Virus record (IMG/VR): IMGVR_UViG_3300028591_000074
Span: 1 to 64,000 of that record
Source of the DNA: a virus
Taxonomy: Duplodnaviria > Caudoviricetes
Direction: 5' to 3' (one strand)
DNA length: 64,000 bases
Shown here one piece after another: positions 3,077-40,990 of this stretch. The notes beneath the pieces were generated by a model, which ran no database searches, was not told where the DNA came from, and saw nothing but the letters and a program-made list of their open reading frames with translations. Made by a program: the position numbers and the translations under genes. Each line of letters begins with the position of its first letter. Position 1 is the stretch's first letter.

Positions 3077-3559
3077 TTAATAGCACATCCATTTAAACTC
3101 GTGAGTCAATAGCCGACGAACAGTATATACATCAAAATCCGGAACTCTGCCCTGTTTATTAAAATCATTCAGCATCTTGAAAATATATCTATTCGCAAGT
3201 GCAGAAATCTGATTTTTAGTTTTCTTAGAATTAAGATATGTCCGGTTCTTCCATGTATAAACTTTTTCACCACCTACATATAATGATACGTGGCATTTTC
3301 CATTCCAATCCGGATTGCTCCGGCAGATATACATATGTATAGAACATCTGTAATGTCCGTAATCCTTATAATAATTTTGACAGTACCATGGATCACCATA
3401 ATGTACATAATGAAGATCATCCACATTGTAGTATCTACCCTTGTAAGAATACAACCGGGAATCTACTTGTTCTATATCTGATTCCTTTGCAGATGGATCA
3501 TTGATGAATTGTAGAAGTAGTTTAGTTTCTTTCATAGTTACCGCCTTTCGTATCAACAA
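3077..3559 (-). CDS. hypothetical protein
   Basis: ORF track; sigma-A type promoter upstream (TTGACA-17-TAATAT near 3578-3606). Confidence 0.7.
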   Translation of the reverse strand: MLIRKAVTMKETKLLLQFINDPSAKESDIEQVDSRLYSYKGRYYNVDDLHYVHYGDPWYCQNYYKDYGHYRCSIHMYICRSNPDWNGKCHVSLYVGGEKVYTWKNRTYLNSKKTKNQISALANRYIFKMLNDFNKQGRVPDFDVYTVRRLLTHEFKWMCY

Positions 3560-3652
3560 TATGTCCCCTATGTCTGTATATTATCACATATATGATAATA
3601 TGTCAATACATTATGATAAATTTTATAATAAATTTATCATAATATAACTAAT

Positions 3653-4425: not shown

Positions 4426-5301
4426 TCACTCTCCTACGTAAACCAATTTCTCAATATAATCTCTACCTTCCCCACTGAAAATAGGAATGTTCGTATCTAA
4501 AATCCAACCGTTTTCAGTCTTAATACAACATGTTCCACGCTTCTCCGGAACAGAAAAATCATTCCAGTTAATTCCTTTCTGCTCATGCAACATTTCCTGA
4601 ATATCATTGCAACTCTTACCATGAAGTTCCTTATGAGAGAAATTCGCTTGACCTGCCATCTGGATAGAGTTCCGAGTTGCATCAAGCTGTCTCCAATAGA
4701 AATAGTTTGTTACTTCTTCCTTTGGAATATTGAAACACCGGGAATCGAACATAGCATGTTTCGATACTCGATCATAGACACCACATAATTTGCAGAAATC
4801 TTCGTTTCGGTTATAGAACAATCCATGATCCTCTGTAGTCCAATCATCCGTGAGTTTTCCAAGTTCTTCTTCCATAGCCTTTACTCTTGCTGGGTATCCA
4901 ATTTTATCATCATTTATGAAGAACATATGTGAAAGTAGATCAAATACAATATTAAACGACTTGGTCGCCATAGAAGCTGAAATGCTACAAATCTTCTGAA
5001 CCTCATTATCAAACCATGCTTGACTGTTTAGATCACTATAATCTACAAGCAAAAGTGATATCTCATCAGATTGTGTATACCCTAATACACACCCTTGAAT
5101 GTTCTCACATAAAGACTTCATTGTTTCTTGCATAGATCTCATAAGGATCTGGTCAAATGGTTTTTGAAATCCACGTGTATATGAATGGAATGATTTACCA
5201 TCGATTCTTATTATTACTGGAGTTCTCCGAGTAAGTTTGTATTTTGTGATTGTTTCATAATTATTCTTCATTCTAATTCCGATATCATCATGTACTGGCA
5301 T
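4426..5301 (-). CDS. thg1: tRNA(His) guanylyltransferase Thg1-family / 3'-5' polymerase
   Basis: RIDGKSFH, YTQSDEISL, FDSR, WRQLDATRNS, GINWND motifs. Confidence 0.93.
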   Translation of the reverse strand: MPVHDDIGIRMKNNYETITKYKLTRRTPVIIRIDGKSFHSYTRGFQKPFDQILMRSMQETMKSLCENIQGCVLGYTQSDEISLLLVDYSDLNSQAWFDNEVQKICSISASMATKSFNIVFDLLSHMFFINDDKIGYPARVKAMEEELGKLTDDWTTEDHGLFYNRNEDFCKLCGVYDRVSKHAMFDSRCFNIPKEEVTNYFYWRQLDATRNSIQMAGQANFSHKELHGKSCNDIQEMLHEQKGINWNDFSVPEKRGTCCIKTENGWILDTNIPIFSGEGRDYIEKLVYVGE

Positions 5302-5319
5302 AAGTATTCACCTCGTTTC

Positions 5320-5859
5320 TTAAATTCTGTACTTCAGATGCATGTAAGCCTTACATATTCTGTTTGCATGAAAATTTTCGCCATATTGATACACAATAGG
5401 AACTACAAACCCATCGGTAGCGAGTAGCATCTGCATACATACATCTTGTGTTCGTGTATATCCTTGTTCTATGCTTATGATGATTCTATGCATCCAATCT
5501 GTAGGAAATCTCATCTGTATTCTAGCAATATTTCTTCCTAACTCATACATGCAGATTGGCTGATCGCTACTGCTATTTGCAAAATACATTGACAGTATGT
5601 CTGCTTGTTCTAACCACCGAAACTCCCACGAAATCTGGGTTGATGCTGCAGATGGATCATTGATAGGAAAATTGTCACGTCTCGGATTGAACAAAACAAG
5701 ATCATCAAGTGAACCTGATTCAGGAGATGTATCCCAGTCCTGAAGTGTACGTATAACATTAGACTGCCAATCAGAACAATTTGTGATTCCACCTGCAAGA
5801 AACACTAAGATGTCAGTTCCTTTAGCAGTGTATTGTTCAGGTGCTGTAATTATCTTCAT
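5320..5859 (-). CDS. nucleoside 2-deoxyribosyltransferase-like protein
   Basis: VFLAGGI...WQ...NPRR...QISWE...PICMYELG pattern. Confidence 0.75.
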   Translation of the reverse strand: MKIITAPEQYTAKGTDILVFLAGGITNCSDWQSNVIRTLQDWDTSPESGSLDDLVLFNPRRDNFPINDPSAASTQISWEFRWLEQADILSMYFANSSSDQPICMYELGRNIARIQMRFPTDWMHRIIISIEQGYTRTQDVCMQMLLATDGFVVPIVYQYGENFHANRICKAYMHLKYRI

Positions 5860-16350: not shown

Positions 16351-16354
16351 TTAC

Positions 16355-16443
16355 CGCCTACGGACAGACTCGAACTGCCACACCGGATTTCCGATTACTC
16401 AGAGATTAGCAATCTCCTGCCTTCCCATTAGGCTTACATAGGC
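16355..16443 (-). tRNA. tRNA-Ser(GCT)
   Basis: GGAGA-TTGCTAA-TCTCT arm, long variable arm. Confidence 0.9.
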
Positions 16444-16450
16444 AATATAG

Positions 16451-16539
16451 TGGGCCGGGTAGGATTCGGACCTACAATGTTTACCACATGGGTGACGGAT
16501 TTACAGTCCGCTGACTTCACCAATTTGTCGCACCGACCC
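16451..16539 (-). tRNA. tRNA-Tyr(GTA)
   Basis: GCGGA-CTGTAAA-TCCGT arm. Confidence 0.9.
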
Positions 16540-16544
16540 ATAAT

Positions 16545-16631
16545 CGCCGTGGCAGAGAATCGAACTCTGGCTTCCATAACAAGGAAGGACTGTTTTCAGG
16601 ACAGTGTAGTGAGCCAACCACAATCCACGGC
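16545..16631 (-). tRNA. tRNA-Ser(TGA), atypical (C33, A8)
   Basis: ACTGT-CCTGAAA-ACAGT arm, long variable arm, G73. Confidence 0.75.
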
Positions 16632-16656
16632 ATTTATACAACTTATTTTGAGAAAT

Positions 16657-16728
16657 GGTGACTACTGGGAATCGAACCCAGATCAATGGAATCACAATCC
16701 ACTGTATTAACCATTGTACTATAGTCAC
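16657..16728 (-). tRNA. tRNA-His(GTG)
   Basis: GTGGA-TTGTGAT-TCCAT arm; C73; no encoded G-1. Confidence 0.9.
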
Positions 16729-16730
16729 AG

Positions 16731-16804
16731 TAGTCGCAGTGGGAATCGAACCCTACATCTCCGGATTGAAAGCCCGGTGTCGTAAACCATTTGACTATGC
16801 GACC
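16731..16804 (-). tRNA. tRNA-Glu(TTC)
   Basis: CCGGG-CTTTCAA-TCCGG arm. Confidence 0.9.
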
Positions 16805-16811
16805 ATTATGA

Positions 16812-17036
16812 TTAAATTGATTTCCTTATGATAATATCATCTATTGCTACACCAAAGGCATCAGCAAGGATTACCATGTTATCTATGGTTGGCATGGAAT
16901 CACCACGGAACCACTTGAATATTGCCTGCGGAGTACCGAACCCGAAGATACCTTGAACATCAGATGTTTTCATATTCTTAGACTTCATGATATTCTTTAT
17001 ATTTGTTCCAGTTGCTACTGTATCTATTACCATCAT
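16812..17036 (-). CDS. XRE-family HTH transcriptional regulator
   Basis: TPQAIFKWFRGDSMPTIDNMVILA; start at 17036 behind AAAGGGG. Confidence 0.85.
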   Translation of the reverse strand: MMVIDTVATGTNIKNIMKSKNMKTSDVQGIFGFGTPQAIFKWFRGDSMPTIDNMVILADAFGVAIDDIIIRKSI

Positions 17037-17066
17037 GATGCTATATCCCCTTTCAGTAATTTTGAG

Positions 17067-17142
17067 TACCCACGATGGGATTTGAACCCACACCATATAC
17101 ATACTTTAAATATGTTGCTTCTTCCTATTGCGCTACGTGGGC
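17067..17142 (-). tRNA. tRNA-Leu(TAA), short variable arm
   Basis: ACATA-TTTAAAG-TATGT arm, A73. Confidence 0.8.
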
Positions 17143-17147
17143 AGATA

Positions 17148-17236
17148 TGCCGGATAAGGGACTCGAACCCTTATGAGAGTTTTATACCTCAGTAGATTTT
17201 GAATCTACCATGTCTAACCAATTTCATCAATCCGGC
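17148..17236 (-). tRNA. tRNA-Leu(CAA)
   Basis: GTAGA-TTCAAAA-TCTAC arm, long variable arm. Confidence 0.9.
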
Positions 17237-17242
17237 AAATAG

Positions 17243-17317
17243 TACCCCCGGCAGGAATCGAACCTGCATATCTACTGATCCTAAGTCAGTCGCCTTTACC
17301 AGTTTGACCACGAGGGC
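17243..17317 (-). tRNA. tRNA-Leu(TAG), short variable arm
   Basis: ACTGA-CTTAGGA-TCAGT arm. Confidence 0.88.
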
Positions 17318-17321
17318 ATAG

Positions 17322-17359
17322 AAAAAGACCATCTATACGCTGTGTACAGATGGTCTTTT
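17322..17359 (-). terminator. attenuator terminator A
   Basis: AAAGACCATCTGTAC-ACAGC-GTATAGATGGTCTTTTT. Confidence 0.85.
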
Positions 17360-17395
17360 AGTTCTTCTGAAGAGTATATTTCAATAGATGAACTA

Positions 17396-17497
17396 TCAAA
17401 TCTTACCATTATCTGCACACGCAAATTGGAAAGCCAATGATGAATAGAGGCTTTCGGAAAGTTCGCTATGCAGATATAATGATCTGAATGTAGTCAT
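17396..17497 (-). CDS. leader peptide A (MTTFRSLYLHSELSESLYSSLAFQFACADNGKI)
   Basis: AAAGGGG SD; 16-residue run only of S/L/Y/H/E; followed by terminator. Confidence 0.85.
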   Translation of the reverse strand: MTTFRSLYLHSELSESLYSSLAFQFACADNGKI

Positions 17498-17525
17498 CGC
17501 TGTTACCCCTTTATTTGATAATTCG

Positions 17526-17554
17526 ATTATAATATAAATTCTTATAAATTGCAA
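17526..17554 (-). promoter_or_regulatory. sigma-A type promoter for tRNA block A
   Basis: TTGCAA-17-TATAAT. Confidence 0.75.
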
Positions 17555-17573
17555 CTATACTATTGGTATATTT

Positions 17574-17611
17574 CAAGTTAGTTGCAAGTTAGTTGCAAGT
17601 TAGTTGCAAGT
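17574..17611. repeat. 11-bp tandem repeat (CAAGTTAGTTG) x3.4
   Basis: direct reading. Confidence 0.9.
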
Positions 17612-17684
17612 ACAGACGGAGAGATTCGAACTCTCAACCAAAGGCTTAGAAGACCTTTGCGCTGATCCATTGCGCCACGCCTGT
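17611..17684 (-). tRNA. tRNA-Arg(TCT)
   Basis: AAGGT-CTTCTAA-GCCTT arm. Confidence 0.9.
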
Positions 17685-17690
17685 ATGAAT

Positions 17691-17762
17691 CTCCCACGGC
17701 AGGACTCGAACCTGCAACCACTCGGTTAACAGCCGATTTCTCAACCATTGAGATACGTGGGA
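17691..17762 (-). tRNA. tRNA-Asn(GTT)
   Basis: TCGG-CTGTTAA-CCGA arm. Confidence 0.9.
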
Positions 17763-17767
17763 ATACA

Positions 17768-17837
17768 AGTACCGCATCAGAGTTGAACTGATCTCTATAG
17801 TTTTGCAGACTACATGCTTCCCGGAAGCAGACGGTAC
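17768..17837 (-). tRNA. tRNA-Cys(GCA)
   Basis: GTAGT-CTGCAAA-ACTAT arm, U73, short D loop. Confidence 0.82.
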
Positions 17838-17844
17838 ATTATAT

Positions 17845-17915
17845 CAGCCGATTCTGGAATTGAACCAAAATCTGATGAGTCAGAATCATCTGTGTTACCA
17901 TTACACCAATCGGCC
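17845..17915 (-). tRNA. tRNA-Gln(CTG)
   Basis: GATGA-TTCTGAC-TCATC arm. Confidence 0.9.
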
Positions 17916-17954
17916 ATGCAACTTATTTGTCCAACACGTACAGACAAGTTATAG

Positions 17955-18025
17955 CAGGTCCTGCACGTTTCGAGCGCACACCATCAAGGTTGGAGCTTGA
18001 TATGCTACCATTACACCAAGGACCC
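17955..18025 (-). tRNA. tRNA-Trp(CCA)
   Basis: TCAAG-CTCCAAC-CTTGA arm; T-loop CTCGAAA. Confidence 0.85.
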
Positions 18026-18033
18026 GGAGAAAG

Positions 18034-18106
18034 TGGATGTGGAGAGGTTTGAACTCTCGGCTTGATGCTTAAGAGGCAACTGCTCTTCCAACTGAGCTAC
18101 ACATCC
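18034..18106 (-). tRNA. tRNA-Lys(CTT)
   Basis: TGC-CTCTTAA-GCA arm. Confidence 0.88.
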
Positions 18107-18112
18107 ATATAC

Positions 18113-18173
18113 AGGACGCATTTTGGTTTCAATGATTAAAAGTCATTTCCAAAAGATTTGCTGTATGCGTCCC
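18113..18173 (-). ncRNA. armless tRNA-Lys(TTT)-like hairpin
   Basis: GGACGCA/TGCGTCC closing stem, TTTTGG/CCAAAA, AATGA-CTTTTAA-TCATT anticodon-like arm; no D/T arms. Confidence 0.55.
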
Positions 18174-18176
18174 AAA

Positions 18177-18248
18177 TGGGTGTGACAAGATTCGAACTTG
18201 CGGTATACAGGTTAAAAGCCTGTTGCCATACCACTTGGCTACACACCC
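18177..18248 (-). tRNA. tRNA-Lys(TTT)
   Basis: ACAGG-CTTTTAA-CCTGT arm. Confidence 0.9.
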
Positions 18249-18253
18249 AAAAA

Positions 18254-18327
18254 TTCAAGGTGGTGGATTCGAACCACCGGCAATCTGCGTATCAGACAGA
18301 CACTCTAACCAACTGAGTTAACCTTGA
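18254..18327 (-). tRNA. tRNA-Ile(GAT)
   Basis: TCTGT-CTGATAC-GCAGA arm. Confidence 0.9.
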
Positions 18328-18328
18328 G

Positions 18329-18400
18329 TGGTCTCGGATAGTTTCGGGCTATCGACACTCTGGGCTTCAACCAGATGCTCTTCCTCTGAGCTACGAGACC
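18329..18400 (-). tRNA. tRNA-Phe(GAA)
   Basis: TCTGG-TTGAAGC-CCAGA arm; T-loop CCCGAAA. Confidence 0.85.
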
Positions 18401-18406
18401 AAAATT

Positions 18407-18450
18407 AAAAAGCCATGAGGCTGATGCTGACTGTCAGACCCATGACTTTT
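18407..18450 (-). terminator. attenuator terminator B
   Basis: AGTCATGGGTCTGA...TCAGCCTCATGGCT-TTTT. Confidence 0.75.
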
Positions 18451-18486
18451 CTTCTCTATAAGGTATAAGATAGAAAATATGTTAGA

Positions 18487-18588
18487 TCATGTAAGACAGT
18501 CTATAGATTCAGCACAATTAAACCAGTTTTTATAACAAAACTGATTTCTAATGTTCTTAATCTGGTTGCTAATAGACTGATACATCAT
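18487..18588 (-). CDS. leader peptide B (MMYQSISNQIKNIRNQFCYKNWFNCAESIDCLT)
   Basis: AAGGAAAGGAG SD; N/Q/I/K/R/F/C/W core; followed by terminator. Confidence 0.85.
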   Translation of the reverse strand: MMYQSISNQIKNIRNQFCYKNWFNCAESIDCLT

Positions 18589-18620
18589 CTTCTTATTATC
18601 TCCTTTCCTTATAGATGTAG

Positions 18621-18693
18621 TTGCAGGGACCGGATTTGAACCGGCAACTTTCAGTTTATGAGACTGAACTGCTTACCATTGCATCACCCTGCG
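18621..18693 (-). tRNA. tRNA-Met(CAT), C1xA72 mismatch (initiator-like)
   Basis: TCAGT-CTCATAA-ACTGA arm. Confidence 0.85.
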
Positions 18694-18699
18694 ATAAAC

Positions 18700-18770
18700 T
18701 TGAAAATGTCAGATTCGAACTGCGCCTCATGCTCCCAAGGCAAGCGTGCTACCATTACACCACATTCTCA
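18700..18770 (-). tRNA. tRNA-Pro(TGG)
   Basis: TGC-CTTGGGA-GCA arm; ends approximate. Confidence 0.8.
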
Positions 18771-18778
18771 ATAATTAA

Positions 18779-18850
18779 CGATCTAGCAGAGAATCGAACT
18801 CTGATCTCCGGATAGACAGTCCGGTGTAATAGCCTTTATACCACAAGACC
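18779..18850 (-). tRNA. tRNA-Asp(GTC)
   Basis: CCGGA-CTGTCTA-TCCGG arm. Confidence 0.9.
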
Positions 18851-18854
18851 GTAT

Positions 18855-18925
18855 AGCTTCCACTCGGATTCGAACCAAGATTTACTGATTACAAATCAGT
18901 AGTCCTGCCATTAGACGATAGAAGC
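18855..18925 (-). tRNA. tRNA-Thr(TGT)
   Basis: ACTGA-TTTGTAA-TCAGT arm. Confidence 0.9.
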
Positions 18926-18930
18926 AGAAT

Positions 18931-19705
18931 ATTTGTCTTGAGATTACAGACAAACGTAACACTCATTAAAACCCTTATTTGTTAGGCTTATATCCACGTA
19001 CCTTTCAATACGTTAGTGCTATGCGTACCTTTAAGGTGGCTATACCTTCATAATTCAGAACTACTCGACCTACTTTTCGACCTTAAAAGAGTTGTACGGA
19101 CTCTCCTAATGTCTACTTGTTCGATCAAACAGGTTCACCTTGCGAGTTCCCCTGTTCCACATTACATTACTGCTGTGGACTTAACGCATTTTCATTCTGA
19201 ACCCCTACTGACTTTTGCTTTTTGGCGATTTTTGTTGGACTTGAACCAACTACCTTTTGTTTAGAAGACAAATACTCTACCCAATGAGCTAAAAAATCAG
19301 TATGTTGGATGTAGATGTGCAGTAGGTTTAGTTTCGTAATCTTTTGAACTACAAAATGCTAAACACCTACGATGTACGTTCCTTTGCATCGTACTTGTAC
19401 TGCCATTTCTGACTGGATATCACCCTTGTTTGCTAAACTCGGATTTATTACCCATTAAATGTCTAACTACCATATCCGTTTGTTTTGCATGTTAGTTAGC
19501 CCTTGCGGAGCCTTGTTCCCATCAGTTGACCTAAAACAAGTTTCTCACTAACCAAACAAATATAGCATTGAATCCACCTATGGTGAACTTAGATTCCTTT
19601 TCAGAATCTATTAAGACAAGTATTGCATACTCTTACCGTTTCCGGCGATAGGCTTACCTTCCTACCTTTCGATATATTACTATACCATATAGGCGTATGC
19701 ACCAT
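18931..19705 (-). ncRNA. large structured ncRNA, GOLLD-like, with embedded tRNA-Arg
   Basis: ~775 nt non-coding, many hairpins with GNRA-type loops (GCAA, GAAA), terminal TGTCTGTAATCTCAAGACA hairpin, inside tRNA array. Confidence 0.55.
19223..19298 (-). tRNA. tRNA-Arg(TCT), second copy, CCA encoded
   Basis: TTTGT-CTTCTAA-ACAAA arm; GATTTTT/AAAAATC-G-CCA. Confidence 0.85.
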
Positions 19706-19709
19706 TGTA

Positions 19710-19782
19710 AGCAGATAGTGAGAATCGAACTCACATCCTTAGTTTGGAAGACTAATATAATAAACCGTTATACGATACCTGC
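19710..19782 (-). tRNA. tRNA-Gly(TCC)
   Basis: TTAGT-CTTCCAA-ACTAA arm. Confidence 0.9.
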
Positions 19783-19854
19783 ATGTGCGAGTGAGAGAAG
19801 TGCCTGTTCCCCTCACTCAGATTTTAATTTTTTGTAATCAGTAGAAACTGATAG

Positions 19855-19926
19855 TAGACCATATAGGAGTCGAACCTATATCTCTTCATTCGTAGTGAAG
19901 TGTTCTATCCGTTATACTAATGATCT
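19855..19926 (-). tRNA. tRNA-Arg(ACG)
   Basis: CTTCA-CTACGAA-TGAAG arm. Confidence 0.9.
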
Positions 19927-19928
19927 AG

Positions 19929-20001
19929 TGCAGATAGTAGGGGTTGAACCTACAACCACTTCCTTGTAAGAGAAGCACTCTCCCAGTTGAGTTATATCTG
20001 C
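19929..20001 (-). tRNA. tRNA-Val(TAC)
   Basis: CTTCT-CTTACAA-GGAAG arm. Confidence 0.9.
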
Positions 20002-20007
20002 AAATAG

Positions 20008-20080
20008 TGGAACCGATGGGGATTGAACCCACAACCTTCTGCTTGCAAAACAGATGCTCTCCCAATTGCGCTACGGCCCC
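20008..20080 (-). tRNA. tRNA-Ala(TGC)
   Basis: TCTGT-TTTGCAA-GCAGA arm; G3:U70. Confidence 0.92.
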
Positions 20081-20087
20081 ATAATGT

Positions 20088-20127
20088 AAAAATCCGTCTT
20101 ACCCTATGTAGGATATAGACGGATTCT
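20088..20127 (-). terminator. attenuator terminator C
   Basis: AATCCGTCTATATCCTACATAGGGTAAGACGGATTTTT. Confidence 0.85.
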
Positions 20128-20160
20128 TCTATGAGGTGTAACTTATGAAGAGATTTTCCA

Positions 20161-20331
20161 CTACCTTCGTCTATATCCTATGTACTTGGCGACTTTTCGA
20201 TTCCATCCAGTTCTTCCTGTGGCGATAGCATCTGGATCTACCGGGGCATCAAATTTGCATACGAAACTAAACCCGCGTGTTGCAGGATGATCCACGATCA
20301 TTGTGAAGTTGATAGTTTCGTAAATCTTCAT
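20161..20331 (-). CDS. leader peptide C (56 aa, MKIYETINFTMIVDHPATRG...DAPVDPDAIATGRTG...RRR)
   Basis: AGGAG SD before ATG 20331; rich in A/V/R/G/T/D/P/M; followed by terminator. Confidence 0.82.
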   Translation of the reverse strand: MKIYETINFTMIVDHPATRGFSFVCKFDAPVDPDAIATGRTGWNRKVAKYIGYRRR

Positions 20332-20412
20332 AATAATTCTCCTAAAAAATTTAGTGCCTATATCTCCATCCGATAACACAAAATGGAGAGACAGGCACTT
20401 CTCTCTGGTAGT

Positions 20413-20441
20413 ATAGTAACATATTGTGGATTAGATGTCAA
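20413..20441 (-). promoter_or_regulatory. sigma-A type promoter of tRNA array
   Basis: TTGACA-17-(TG.)TACTAT. Confidence 0.75.
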
Positions 20442-22740
20442 CAGGAAATTTATTTGGATTCAAATATTCCCATCGTATAGTTCCAGAATCGTAAACTCTT
20501 ACATATCCATGTTCTTCCATAATCTGCTTTTCAGTCTTTGTTAGATCAAGAATTTCATTCGGAAACAGCCTGTGCATATTCGATTTCTGACAAGACACAC
20601 GGTTAAGATAAGTATCATCTGAAAGATTTACCCACACATATCTTGGGGAAGAAATCCGATTTGGTACAAAACATAATTTATCATACATGTTTCCACGTGT
20701 ATGTGCCACATCTGAATAAGATATAATCCGATCATATTCGTAATGATTTATGAAATACTTCAGCAATTTCGAAGCACCACCAACAACAGATGTATTCAGT
20801 TTGCTACAAAATCTTGAAAGTTCCCAAGTATTGCTATCAAATTTCTTACCAAGTGTCTTACGAATATGATTAAATGTCATTACTGATACAAGTTCATTTG
20901 TATCATTTGTAAATAAACCTAATCGTACTTTAGCAGACATACTACCTTGTCTATGATTCTGGTTCAAGAAAGCCTTACACGTATTAAAATCTATTTCAGA
21001 TATATAACACCTTCTTGCATAAATCTTAGTATCCGTCTTACCAAGCAAAGCAGCAATCATTGATTTTATAATGTTTTTCCGGTAAGTCCATTCATACCCA
21101 AAAATGTGGAACAGAAAGATACCATTCTGCTCTGCAAGAACAGATTTCATCTGATGATATTTATAATCCTTAGGTTCATTCGTCCATGGATCACCAATAG
21201 AGGAATTATGCGTAATAGTAGGATTACATTCAATCCCAATTTTATAATCCGGTAAATAGATATCTATTTCATATGGAGAAATTAGATTTCTATCATGCTG
21301 AATTATGATACAATTTGGATTGATAGATGTAATCATATCTATAACGTCCAATTCAGCCATAGATTTATGATAAGAAATCATATGCTGCAATCCATTGGTG
21401 TTCACATGCGCACTTATGGTCGAAATAGTTACACCAGTATCCCTTGCCACCTCTGTAAGTGTCGGCTTATGTTTATATGTAGTTTCAATAAACACTTTTG
21501 GGTTATTTCGAAATTCCATAAACACATCTACTTTAGATGGATCAACAATTTTAGACTCCATATTGTATTTAGAAGAATTGTACCACTCTGTACCATACTT
21601 AGCCAGATTTGTAGATTTCTTCCTCTCAGTCAATCCTGGAATATGTGCAATATTGTCGACACCATATTTATCTAATAACGACTTCTTAATATATTCCTGA
21701 ATCATCGGTGATGAAAATACATTCTCAACACCGTAACGATTCAAATTCGTTACTTTTATTTTATTTCTAACATATTCAGAAGCTATTGCATATTCATTTC
21801 CATACCTATCCAAATTTGTTTTTCGTTTTCTATCAGAAATAACTTCACTATGTGCTGGATTATCTACACCATATTTTTCGACCATAGTGGATTTATATTT
21901 TTCATCAAGAATTTTGGAGTCCCTAAAAATTCCACCATATTTCTCAAGTTTCGTTGTAGTAATCTTATCGCGCAATTCCGGACTTGCCATGCCAAATCCA
22001 CCATATCGCAATTCTGAAGTATGTCTCGCTTTCTCTAAAACTTCTGGATCACATGTTGGAGACTTACCACCATATCGTTCTAAATTTGTATCATCTACTT
22101 TCTTACGGATTTCAGTATTCTTTAATGGACTTGTAACACCATATCTTTCAAGCATAGTAGAATTAAATGATTCTTTAAACTCATCTGTCTTCGAATAATG
22201 ATCTACTCCATAACGGTTCCTAATAGTTTCCCTAATTTTGCCTTTGCCATAATCTGATGCAAACACATTTGTAGCACCATATCGTTTTAAGGACGTTTCT
22301 TGAATCCTTTTCTTCCTACATTCTTCAGAACAAGCCTGTGGTCCAATACACATTTCCTTAATCTCTACTTGCTTTCCACAAACAGGACATGGACCATAAT
22401 GCTTATCATAACAATACTCACGTCTTGCTGAATCAGTCTCAAACTCCTTACCACAACATTTACAAATCTTCTTAAAATGCTGAAGTTCACTTGCATTTGA
22501 TACACCATATCTACGTTGCATAGTTGCCTGTGTCTTTACAACATTATCTTTAGCAATACCAGATACTTTCATATAAATTCCGCGACATTTGGATGAACAT
22601 GTTTTCTGAGTATATGGATGATGTAATTCAAATTCTTTTCCACAAACAACACAAACAGCAGTATGGCAATCTGCACACACTGCTGTTTTACGTATAGCTT
22701 CAAACTCTTTTCCACATCTAACACAGATGTATTTTTTCAT
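20431..22740 (-). CDS. Hef-like homing endonuclease with Zn ribbons and TNLxRYG repeats
   Basis: CxxC ribbons, many (T/M)xx(K/R)YGV repeats, YEIDIY...IECN nuclease motif, ELSRFC...GGASKL C-terminal domain. Confidence 0.7.
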   Translation of the reverse strand: MKKYICVRCGKEFEAIRKTAVCADCHTAVCVVCGKEFELHHPYTQKTCSSKCRGIYMKVSGIAKDNVVKTQATMQRRYGVSNASELQHFKKICKCCGKEFETDSARREYCYDKHYGPCPVCGKQVEIKEMCIGPQACSEECRKKRIQETSLKRYGATNVFASDYGKGKIRETIRNRYGVDHYSKTDEFKESFNSTMLERYGVTSPLKNTEIRKKVDDTNLERYGGKSPTCDPEVLEKARHTSELRYGGFGMASPELRDKITTTKLEKYGGIFRDSKILDEKYKSTMVEKYGVDNPAHSEVISDRKRKTNLDRYGNEYAIASEYVRNKIKVTNLNRYGVENVFSSPMIQEYIKKSLLDKYGVDNIAHIPGLTERKKSTNLAKYGTEWYNSSKYNMESKIVDPSKVDVFMEFRNNPKVFIETTYKHKPTLTEVARDTGVTISTISAHVNTNGLQHMISYHKSMAELDVIDMITSINPNCIIIQHDRNLISPYEIDIYLPDYKIGIECNPTITHNSSIGDPWTNEPKDYKYHQMKSVLAEQNGIFLFHIFGYEWTYRKNIIKSMIAALLGKTDTKIYARRCYISEIDFNTCKAFLNQNHRQGSMSAKVRLGLFTNDTNELVSVMTFNHIRKTLGKKFDSNTWELSRFCSKLNTSVVGGASKLLKYFINHYEYDRIISYSDVAHTRGNMYDKLCFVPNRISSPRYVWVNLSDDTYLNRVSCQKSNMHRLFPNEILDLTKTEKQIMEEHGYVRVYDSGTIRWEYLNPNKFPVDI

Positions 22741-39464: not shown

Positions 39465-40700
39465 TTAAACAACTTTAGTAAAACTTGTTATAAATCCGTT
39501 TCTGTTCTGTACTTTATCAATCTTTTTATAACTAATTTCCTTCTTAAAATCCTTATCTATTAAGTCTTTAATCTGAAAACTACCGCTCGTTCTTAGAGAA
39601 TTTACATAACATAACTTACTATTCCATCTAACAAGGTCATATCTATGAAATCCAAACATCTCATAAGAACATTGATTTCGTTTTACAATACCCTCTTTTA
39701 AGATTTTGTCTTTATAAATCTTTCTATTATGTCGCCTTACTTTCTTCTGATAATACACTGTACCACTTGTTTTAGCTAAGGGATTGCCACTTATGCATCT
39801 TGCATCGATGAAATGATCTTTAGGCAATCCATTCTTTATACGATTGTTTTTTGTAATATACCCAAAAGTCATATGAACATTCGGATAGTTCTTTTTTAAC
39901 TCACCGTAGAAAGTCCATCTCATAATACCCATAAATGCAGCATCTTTAAATGATGCACCACGCTTGATACTTTTAGGCAATATTACAGATCCTTTATGGT
40001 ATCCAGTATGACAAGTTTCACACAAAGTAATCAGATTATTAGGTGCATTGCCACCTGTCTTTCTGCTTTCAATGTGGTGTACATTTAATATCTTATCACC
40101 AGATTTACCTTTGCAACATTGGCAAGTATGGCTATCTCTCCATAACACGTATTCCCTTATATTCCAAAAATTTAATTGATCACCATGCTGATATTCTTCG
40201 CCTTGTATATCCGGATTCTTAATCTTCTGGATATCAAAACTTGCAGTTTCAACTGTAATCTTAAATACAGGAAGAATCTTATATACATCTCTAACTACTT
40301 GTAAGTGTGTTTCAATTTTCTGCCTTACAGAAGGGGCTAACCACCCCTCTTCTCTTTTTCGGTTATAAAATCTAGCCTTACGGTATCTTGTTTTTCTGTT
40401 TCTTCTTGTTCTTCTTGCTTCCCTTTTAGTAGAGATAAGATCAACAATATCATTCCTTAGTTCGACATCTGCTTCGTATAATACTTTATTTTCAGTAGTT
40501 GCCGATACACCAATATGCTTACTACCAGCATCAATACCTAAGCTGATAGGTTGTACGTTTTCTTCACAGTCAAACAAAAGCTGAATAGTAAAAGGTACCT
40601 TCTTAACAACTTTTGCTTTCTTGTCCCTTAACAGATGTCTTGCTTTAGCCTCTTTACAAGGCATTAACGGGTTTTCGTTCTTATTTATTACATACACCAT
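39465..40700 (-). CDS. iscB: RNA-guided endonuclease IscB
   Basis: PLMP N-terminus, GIDAG RuvC-I, RRTRR bridge helix, HNH, RuvC-III HFIDA. Confidence 0.93.
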   Translation of the reverse strand: MVYVINKNENPLMPCKEAKARHLLRDKKAKVVKKVPFTIQLLFDCEENVQPISLGIDAGSKHIGVSATTENKVLYEADVELRNDIVDLISTKREARRTRRNRKTRYRKARFYNRKREEGWLAPSVRQKIETHLQVVRDVYKILPVFKITVETASFDIQKIKNPDIQGEEYQHGDQLNFWNIREYVLWRDSHTCQCCKGKSGDKILNVHHIESRKTGGNAPNNLITLCETCHTGYHKGSVILPKSIKRGASFKDAAFMGIMRWTFYGELKKNYPNVHMTFGYITKNNRIKNGLPKDHFIDARCISGNPLAKTSGTVYYQKKVRRHNRKIYKDKILKEGIVKRNQCSYEMFGFHRYDLVRWNSKLCYVNSLRTSGSFQIKDLIDKDFKKEISYKKIDKVQNRNGFITSFTKVV

Positions 40701-40715
40701 AATTTTAAATTCTCC

Positions 40716-40990
40716 TGTATGTTAGAGTAAAATCTCCCACGACAATGTTATCTTGAGGTTTTATGTCAGCAACACTGTTCCGACAATAACAGAACTGTTT
40801 AATCACTGCCCTTAGAGCTTCAGGCTGGAAGTACACCAAAAGGTAACTATGTATTCTCAAGTAACGTAGTTATTAAGATGCATTTTAATATTTCATCTTA
40901 GCAACTCAGTCTGATTATCCTGTTCCGTCCGGAGAACATATTATATACAAATATCTTAATGATATTCAACCGTACATAATATTATTGTGG
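40716..40990 (-). ncRNA. omegaRNA of IscB (bounds approximate)
   Basis: non-coding, CTACGTT...CCAGCC...GCTCT...AACATTG pattern directly upstream of iscB. Confidence 0.7.

Follow-up and report, generated by a model that had tools for sequence, protein, structure and literature searches.

A GOLLD RNA Gene in a Phage tRNA Array with a tRNA-Shaped, CCA-Encoding Insert in Its Linker

The stretch of DNA examined here (the window) is the first 64 kb of IMGVR_UViG_3300028591_000074, the 253.5 kb record of a rumen/gut phage, and it includes an array of 26 transfer RNA (tRNA) genes that ARAGORN places at 16354–20080, all of them on the minus strand. Within this array lies a non-coding interval for which the best overall explanation, and one that we hold with considerable confidence, is a full-length gene for GOLLD RNA, running from 19709 to 18935 on the minus strand over at most ~775 nucleotides (nt) and carrying a tRNA-shaped module in its linker. 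In terms of family this is an ordinary GOLLD member: both the family and the occurrence of a tRNA in its linker have been published, and the locus adds one more such RNA. What appears to be new, from comparison of related loci, is that the linker tRNA tends to encode its CCA where no neighbouring tRNA gene does so. Structural papers leave the role of the linker tRNA open, and the encoded CCA, together with the regularity of the cassette that bears it, provides a checkable clue to how GOLLD is processed and to whether the tRNA serves as cargo, as bait or as a structural part. The locus, with tRNAs on both sides, is a defined construct.

A Full-Length GOLLD RNA Gene between Two tRNA Genes

The whole window was searched against the covariance models of Rfam 15, and the region 18300–20300 was searched permissively at E ≤ 10. 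The GOLLD model (RF02032) matches 19371→18935 on the minus strand over its full length (model positions 1–416), with 174.5 bits against a gathering score of 150 and E = 2.6e-47, and this is the only GOLLD in the whole phage record. An earlier note, made from the letters of the window, had called the region GOLLD-like, and the Infernal/Rfam comparison bears this out. ROOL (RF03087) is likewise a large phage RNA that is found near tRNA genes and forms RNA-only cages; it differs in fold and in family and has no sequence or structure match here, neither at E ≤ 10 in 18300–20300 nor window-wide at its gathering score. The ROOL model itself performs, scoring 218 bits in the metagenomic tRNA array L239. 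The permissive search of 18300–20300 returned no family besides those found at gathering score. When the 775 nt were compared with phage records by BLASTN, the sole match was to a tRNA-Arg of cyanophage P-TIM40, and there is therefore no close cultured relative.

Because the Rfam model represents only the conserved 3′ region, the 334 nt upstream of it (19705→19372) were examined with a model of their own. Alignment A2, which brings together the opening ~130 nt of the 5′ domain in three other GOLLD lineages, was given a five-helix structure in which 94.9% of cells are paired, compared with 31–52% in slid controls, and in which 14 pairs are compensatory. The covariance model based on this alignment, R1, matches the window once, at 19710→19586, with 28.9 bits and E = 5e-5, over its full length and without a single non-canonical pair, the next-best matches in the window having E > 1. 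Six further lineages likewise have an R1 match at the start of their 5′ domain; in a 16-sequence alignment, which is fitted to R1 and so leans towards the model, compensatory change is seen at 24 of 28 pairs. The start of the 5′ domain so delimited (19586–19709, minus strand, five helices) consists of a small hairpin, a GNRA hairpin, GAAAGG with a hairpin, a GCCG-GAAA-CGGU hairpin and the strand A.UGCAAU, which is followed by a hairpin with a CUGAAAAGG loop. A structured 5′ domain is present upstream of the Rfam region, and its first ~125 nt are common to other lineages.

The assignment of the rest of the 5′ domain (19372–19585, minus strand), which comprises a long irregular helix and hairpins capped by GCAA and GAAA, rests on covariation within the clade and on folding z-scores. 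For this middle portion of the 5′ part the folding z-score is −2.78 on the minus strand versus +0.09 on the plus strand. In an alignment of the window with its relatives L116, L117 and L233 over 19299–19709 (A4), 124 pairs are predicted, of which 13 are compensatory, with 4 broken cells; the 3′ domain of the same four sequences (A5) has 81 pairs, 5 of them compensatory, and 1 broken cell. Covariation among homologues, which the earlier note had left to be looked for, is present in both domains. Sequence profiles reach less far, in that an nhmmer profile made from other lineages' 5′ domains picks up no more than the first hairpin of the 3′ region (E = 2e-5), leaving 19372–19585 unmatched. An iterated nhmmer search that aligned the whole 5′ domain to other lineages was discarded as circular, the profile having failed once the window's own clade was left out, and the covariance model was therefore used.

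The 3′ region begins with the hairpin just mentioned (19310–19371, minus strand; Rfam model positions 1–62), which has a UCAAAAG loop and stands just before the linker, J13/15. The 5′ side of the linker, an 11-nt leader of the tRNA at 19299–19309, falls in an unpaired and variable region of the Rfam alignment; it is followed by the tRNA-shaped insert (19223–19298) and, directly after the CCA of the insert, by the AAAAGCAAAAGUC strand (19210–19222), a highly conserved block of the Rfam model and the anchor of all pattern scans described below. The rest of the conserved 3′ domain occupies 18935–19209, up to model position 416, and all of these elements are on the minus strand. A long-range pairing of 19194–19203 with 19052–19061 is kept in the clade alignment, one hairpin of the 3′ domain has an invariant CCGUACA loop that contains the palindrome GUAC, and non-canonical pairs are few in the Rfam alignment of this domain.

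The likeness to the solved GOLLD structures, those of env-38 (a 14-mer; PDB 9MEE; PMC12286853) and S. agalactiae (a 12-mer; 9L0R; PMC12990946), is extensive: the 3′ domain agrees over its whole length; upstream of it stands a variable 5′ domain, the first sub-domain of which is recognised by a covariance model of other lineages; the first hairpin of the 3′ region is succeeded by a variable linker; and the RNA is phage-borne, lies in a tRNA array and is ~775 nt long. The differences are a 5′ domain of 334 nt versus 420 nt for the 5′ region of env-38, the lack of one hairpin of the Rfam model (around positions 247–262) and, unlike the solved examples, gaps of just 4 and 9 nt to the flanking tRNAs within an array of 26 tRNAs whose start is preceded by a terminator hairpin.

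The flanking genes are tRNA-Gly(UCC) at 19710–19782, 4 nt 5′ of GOLLD, and tRNA-Thr(UGU) at 18855–18925, 9 nt 3′ of it, both called on the minus strand by ARAGORN and together bounding a minus-strand interval of 784 nt (18926–19709) that is essentially the ORF-free stretch of ~775 nt (ORF, open reading frame) first noticed at 18931–19705. The order GOLLD then tRNA-Thr is also found in L116, L117 and L233, and flanking tRNAs recur at GOLLD loci elsewhere, several of which have tRNAs on both sides. One may ask whether the interval is an RNA gene of its own at all, rather than a decayed spacer, a plus-strand gene for a small protein, or a member of ROOL or of a new family. Its longest ORF, which has a GTG start and encodes 82 amino acids on the plus strand (19016–19264), speaks for such a reading, as does a 5′ part that is unlike other GOLLD lineages by sequence profile alone. 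This ORF is interrupted in relatives, by a frameshift in L116 and by stops in L233, so that the interval holds no credible gene; in addition, the GOLLD match is above threshold and ROOL is absent at E ≤ 10, the structure covaries, the fold is more stable than that of shuffled sequence on the minus strand only, and RNA contigs are confined to the interval. We therefore regard this reading as refuted and give it next to no weight.

Sequences of the locus turn up in gut metagenomes, those of sheep and goat among them, as well as in RNA libraries (sequencing runs with small shares were not used for habitat). Assembled contigs of four RNA-library runs, X2, X9, X11 and X24, from three ruminant/gut studies, were compared with 18300–20400. 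They cover 18974–19695, tRNA included, at a summed depth of ~20–470, while the flanking tRNA genes and spacers stand at 0–3. A contig of 750 nt from X9, which is 94% identical to the window and has an insert of the L116 type, contains the whole RNA including the tRNA, with adapter at both ends, and an exact contig of 122 nt from X2, also found in X11, crosses both tRNA junctions (19193–19314). In these assembled contigs from RNA libraries GOLLD appears with its insert still joined. In three runs from two studies adapter follows 19695, which would place an RNA 5′ end at or a few bases upstream of this position, ~14 nt inside the tRNA-Gly border. A terminus there would split the first small helix, and library preparation may have removed some 5′-terminal sequence. 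Steps in depth and breaks of contigs at the borders of the tRNA were also considered as signs of processing and rejected as such; they coincide with loose ends and low-depth, tRNA-skipping joints that look like co-occurring strains with other linkers.

Other RNAs are found close to GOLLD in related arrays. L239 has both a GOLLD (3126–3564, 191.5 bits) and a ROOL (4780–5450, 218.1 bits), ~1.2 kb apart. Phage transfer-messenger RNA (tmRNA) genes adjoin GOLLD, 23 nt 3′ of it, in L251 (557–1458) and L266 (11292–12193), and a tmRNA gene shares the array with GOLLD at L096:2657–3013.

The Linker Insert as a tRNA-Shaped Cassette

The module in the linker (19223–19298, minus strand) is called tRNA-Arg(UCU) by ARAGORN and scores 69.7 bits with the Rfam tRNA model. 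Its acceptor stem consists of a G-C pair and six A-U pairs and ends in discriminator G73 and CCA (19225–19223), and its cloverleaf has a 7-nt anticodon loop with U33, a purine at 37 and the anticodon UCU. It occupies the unpaired, variable stretch that follows the first hairpin in the Rfam alignment, and a tRNA is found in the linker in the same way in more than 25 other GOLLD loci. The split of the interval by a tRNA-Arg(TCT) had been seen before; the cloverleaf and its UCU anticodon stand, and the arginine identity looks weaker, since the anticodon differs in orthologous inserts from within this GOLLD clade. Arginine identity is thus probably incidental, and on comparison of its orthologues the insert is best described as a conserved tRNA-shaped cassette with a drifting anticodon.

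Several lines of comparison contribute to this description. The 26 genes of the array have 25 distinct anticodons, and the insert is the duplicate, for a free tRNA-Arg(UCU) is encoded at 17610–17684. The free gene is 98.7% identical between the window and L116, and the insert 78%, with anticodon and T stems rebuilt by compensatory changes and a C33 in L116. Moreover, the D loop of the insert (AUUGGGUA) lacks A20, which the free tRNA-Arg(UCU) possesses (AAUGGAUCA; the numbering is our own parse). A20 is an identity element for arginyl-tRNA synthetase, by a rule established for E. coli that may not be the host's. The 13 loci of the window's scaffold cluster have in common an acceptor stem (GAUUUUU/AAAAAUC and close variants) and a D arm, 11 of the 13 inserts keep the CCA, and their anticodons are UCU, UAU, UUU, UGG, AGG or GUG, or else the loop has 8 nt; AAG, GAC, CUC and GCG are found in addition in neighbouring clusters. 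Some orthologous inserts receive "Leu" or "Ser" calls in the absence of a long variable arm, and these cannot be real identities.

Anticodon loops of 6 or 8 nt are found in the linker inserts of L111, L096/L103/L106/L107/L112, L251/L266, L242 and L253, which, judged by their sequences, are tRNA look-alikes rather than normal decoders. In two tRNA-less GOLLDs only a T arm is present, directly before the anchor. When the tRNA arrays of the window and L116 are compared, they form a mosaic, with gene identities from 64.5% (Asp, Lys-UUU) to 100% and a GOLLD scaffold at 95.6%, and this pattern suggests that single tRNA genes are replaced as cassettes between close relatives. The fast evolution of the insert relative to the scaffold (78% vs 95.6%, p = 8e-8) was considered as an arms-race signal and set aside, given that the other tRNAs of the array span 64–100%.

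That tRNAs can sit in the linker of some GOLLDs has been reported previously (PMC12286853, PMC12990946, PMC6582537). The linker of the env-38 structure is disordered and points into the cage (PMC12286853); a 2026 review reports that J13/15 of a Mycolicibacterium GOLLD holds a tRNA-Phe and raises the idea of "inhibited storage" (PMC12990946); and in a mycobacterial study GOLLD was seen to contain a pseudo-tRNA, with no free form of it detected in M. aubagnense (PMC6582537). The present case resembles the Mycolicibacterium tRNA-Phe and the M. aubagnense pseudo-tRNA in having a tRNA-shaped element in the same linker that is predicted to face inward, and differs from them in that the element has the full form of a tRNA and encodes its CCA in an array that has none elsewhere.

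An Encoded CCA among CCA-Less Neighbours

The G73-CCA of the insert (19225–19223) is the only encoded CCA among the 26 tRNAs of the array, just as the earlier note had it. The comparison was extended to GOLLDs with a tRNA beside the AAAGCAAAAGUC strand, gathered from viral contigs, species-representative genomes and metagenomes. A first loose pattern scan of the viral contigs gave many chance matches, which were filtered by further motifs; the species-representative genomes yielded one real GOLLD relative (L233) and otherwise matches by chance; and the metagenomes yielded 28 loci, with all 20 of those tested being GOLLD above threshold. CCA was then scored from the ARAGORN structures of every tRNA on the GOLLD strand. 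The sample is biased in that the exact anchor AAAGCAAAAGTC and a T loop within 12–42 nt were required, and the clusters are related to one another.

Where none of the neighbouring tRNAs of an array encodes CCA (0 of ~365), 16 of 25 loci have NCCA at the end of the embedded tRNA. Counted by cluster, at 85% scaffold identity, NCCA is found in 6 of 10, and two more are one base away from it (CAA, or ACCA offset by one). Detection of CCA was controlled in arrays that do encode it, where it was scored in 17/17 and 18/20 cases, and in such CCA-encoding arrays the embedded tRNA itself often lacks the CCA (L258, L251/L266, the L089 family and L118). None of 40 tRNA-less GOLLDs has a CCA before the anchor, so the CCA belongs to the insert and not to a GOLLD motif. 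In most loci it abuts the AAAGCAAAAGUC strand with 0–1 nt in between, and in four loci 14–21 nt intervene.

No member of the class II CCA-adding enzyme family (PF01743) was found in the phage record. Neither the CCA regularity nor the drift of the anticodon within a GOLLD clade is mentioned in PMC12286853, PMC12990946 or PMC6582537, the structural paper PMC12286853 mentions none of CCA, RNase P and RNase Z, and a literature search joining GOLLD and CCA returned unrelated papers only. As a separate matter, about half of the CCA-less tRNAs of the window have, as we read them, the same trailer, N73-C-U-A-U (for example AC followed by UAU), which may be a shared 3′-processing signal.

Tethered Mimic, Ordinary tRNA or Cleavage Site

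The reading that we put forward from these comparisons, tentatively and with rather less than even confidence, is that the insert is a CCA-tethered tRNA mimic rather than an extra decoder of AGA. A plain decoder is disfavoured because the anticodon is a duplicate, A20 is missing and the anticodons of orthologous inserts vary. Under this proposal the encoded CCA, which has no counterpart in the 25 neighbouring tRNAs, would stop RNase Z from cutting after the discriminator, and with RNase Z blocked the module would stay joined to the 3′ domain.

It is important to stress that a number of observations weigh against a tethered mimic. The window's own insert has a canonical 7-nt anticodon loop with U33 and a purine at 37, and many, perhaps most, of the anticodons in the sample are those of amino acids whose synthetases recognise the anticodon, which is compatible with a role in decoding. 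Of the 25 loci whose neighbours lack CCA, 9 have an embedded tRNA that lacks it too, and the linker tRNA is also without it in three clades from CCA-encoding arrays. CCA generally inhibits tRNase Z (PMC3161902), and this may not hold for the type of enzyme that the host possesses; C74 has been reported as the most inhibitory base (PMC3161902) and, in our reading of the 3′ trailers, is carried by about half of the other tRNAs of the window, and this makes a plain division into tRNAs with and without CCA less telling. The assembled contigs do not show strand, ends or abundance reliably, and their breaks at the tRNA borders coincide with strain variation.

A simpler view, to which we assign about twice as much credence as to cleavage after the CCA and which we still judge unlikely, is that the insert is an ordinary phage tRNA-Arg(UCU) freed by RNase P and a 3′ nuclease, with GOLLD existing as two pieces or as reassociated halves. 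The linker would be a convenient place for one more tRNA gene, the insert is a very good tRNA at 69.7 bits with a canonical anticodon loop, and its divergence between relatives is like that of the other tRNAs of the array (78% vs 64–100%). Bacterial RNase P uses the 3′ RCCA of its substrates, and the encoded CCA could thus favour cleavage at the 5′ side. Summed contig depth in run X2 is higher on the 5′ part than on the tRNA and 3′ part, a difference that is confounded by co-occurring strains with other linkers. Set against release of the tRNA are the RNA contigs of two studies that cross both tRNA junctions, the free tRNA-Arg(UCU) with A20 that the phage already has, the orthologous inserts with 6- or 8-nt anticodon loops or with "Leu" and "Ser" calls that lack a long variable arm, and the absence of detectable free tRNA from the GOLLD insert of M. 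aubagnense (PMC6582537).

Cleavage exactly after the CCA would also yield a two-piece GOLLD, its 5′ piece ending in a chargeable tRNA-like CCA, much as in the tRNA-like domain of tmRNA and in two-piece tmRNAs. The close abutment of CCA and the AAAGCAAAAGUC strand (0–1 nt in most loci) and the conservation of acceptor stem and CCA beside a variable anticodon speak for such a cut, and some tRNase Z enzymes, of the Thermotoga type, do cut after CCA (PMC3161902). We nevertheless consider this improbable, given an exact RNA contig that runs through the CCA/AAAAGC junction and the 14–21 nt that separate CCA and anchor in four loci.

Processing, Assembly and Possible Function

With regard to biogenesis, the position of the gene makes it likely that GOLLD is co-transcribed with the surrounding phage tRNA genes and that the maturation enzymes of its two tRNA neighbours release it, cutting at the 3′ terminus of tRNA-Gly and at the 5′ terminus of tRNA-Thr; this is proposed because the gaps here are of 4 and 9 nt and tRNAs stand on both sides in several other loci. 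The 3′ processing of tRNA-Gly would probably create the 5′ end of GOLLD, and an RNase P cut at the 5′ end of tRNA-Thr would probably create its 3′ end. The textbook comparisons are mitochondrial polycistrons and MALAT1/mascRNA, in which tRNA shapes in or next to a longer RNA set the RNase P and RNase Z cuts, and tmRNA, in which a tRNA-like module works inside a larger RNA; these are analogies of mechanism and do not imply membership.

By homology with env-38 and S. agalactiae, the only GOLLDs for which such assembly is known, somewhat better than even confidence can be placed in self-assembly of the released RNA into a closed shell of 10 to 14 subunits, with linker and tRNA module directed inward. 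The field in which such a particle would act is most likely tRNA supply or tRNA protection during infection, as suggested by its gene neighbourhood of 26 tRNAs, an RNA ligase/kinase-phosphatase, Thg1 and RlaP. A more specific and frankly speculative idea, which we rate as improbable, is that a shell with 10–14 CCA-protected tRNA mimics would be a multivalent bait, sensor or store for tRNA-handling enzymes. The targets would be, for example, host anticodon nucleases or processing and repair enzymes, and in this phage a leader-peptide attenuator responsive to slow translation would control how much of the shell is made. Were this so, GOLLD, which has had no known function since 2009, would gain a role open to testing.

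Genomic Context and Host

A terminator-like hairpin with a U run, referred to here as attenuator C, is predicted by folding at 20088–20129 on the minus strand, immediately upstream of the tRNA-Ala at the head of the tRNA block (−31.2 kcal/mol, z = −4.77). As no convincing promoter or terminator was found on the minus strand between this hairpin and GOLLD, GOLLD is probably under whatever controls tRNA block C; a tie to attenuator C, and through it to translational stress, is something that we infer from position only. Between tRNA-Arg(ACG) and tRNA-Gly, at about 19793–19822 on the minus strand, there is a hairpin with a CAGGCAC loop that, taken on the plus strand, would have the form of a terminator. 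It recurs with compensatory stem changes directly 5′ of GOLLD at L233:939–969, a locus that lacks the tRNA-Gly.

L233 (FOEK01000052.1, 1873 nt) has the block Ala-Arg(ACG)-[GOLLD with Ile(UAU) insert]-Thr and is a short contig in the assembled genome of Lachnospiraceae bacterium NE2001, a rumen isolate. The sheath protein of the phage was not found in that assembly, and a claim of NE2001 as the host was dropped for this reason; the shared block is a weak hint towards such a host.

Genes for a tail sheath, a portal, a DNA polymerase, a kinase-phosphatase/RNA ligase fusion, RlaP and Thg1 lie nearby. Immediately upstream of the tRNA array is the gene for a 769-amino-acid protein (20431–22740, minus strand) with matches to homing/HNH-endonuclease PHROG families and a DUF7487 domain, and an HNH endonuclease is also present in GOLLD-bearing mycobacterial tRNA clusters (PMC6582537). 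Elsewhere in the window, a HEARO RNA (RF02033, 90.1 bits, 40727–40963, minus strand) is located directly 5′ of the gene for a 411-amino-acid IscB-like protein with RRXRR and HNH domains, and the two together (39465–40963, minus strand), beside a UvsX-like recombinase, look like an OMEGA-type pair of RNA and RNA-guided nuclease.

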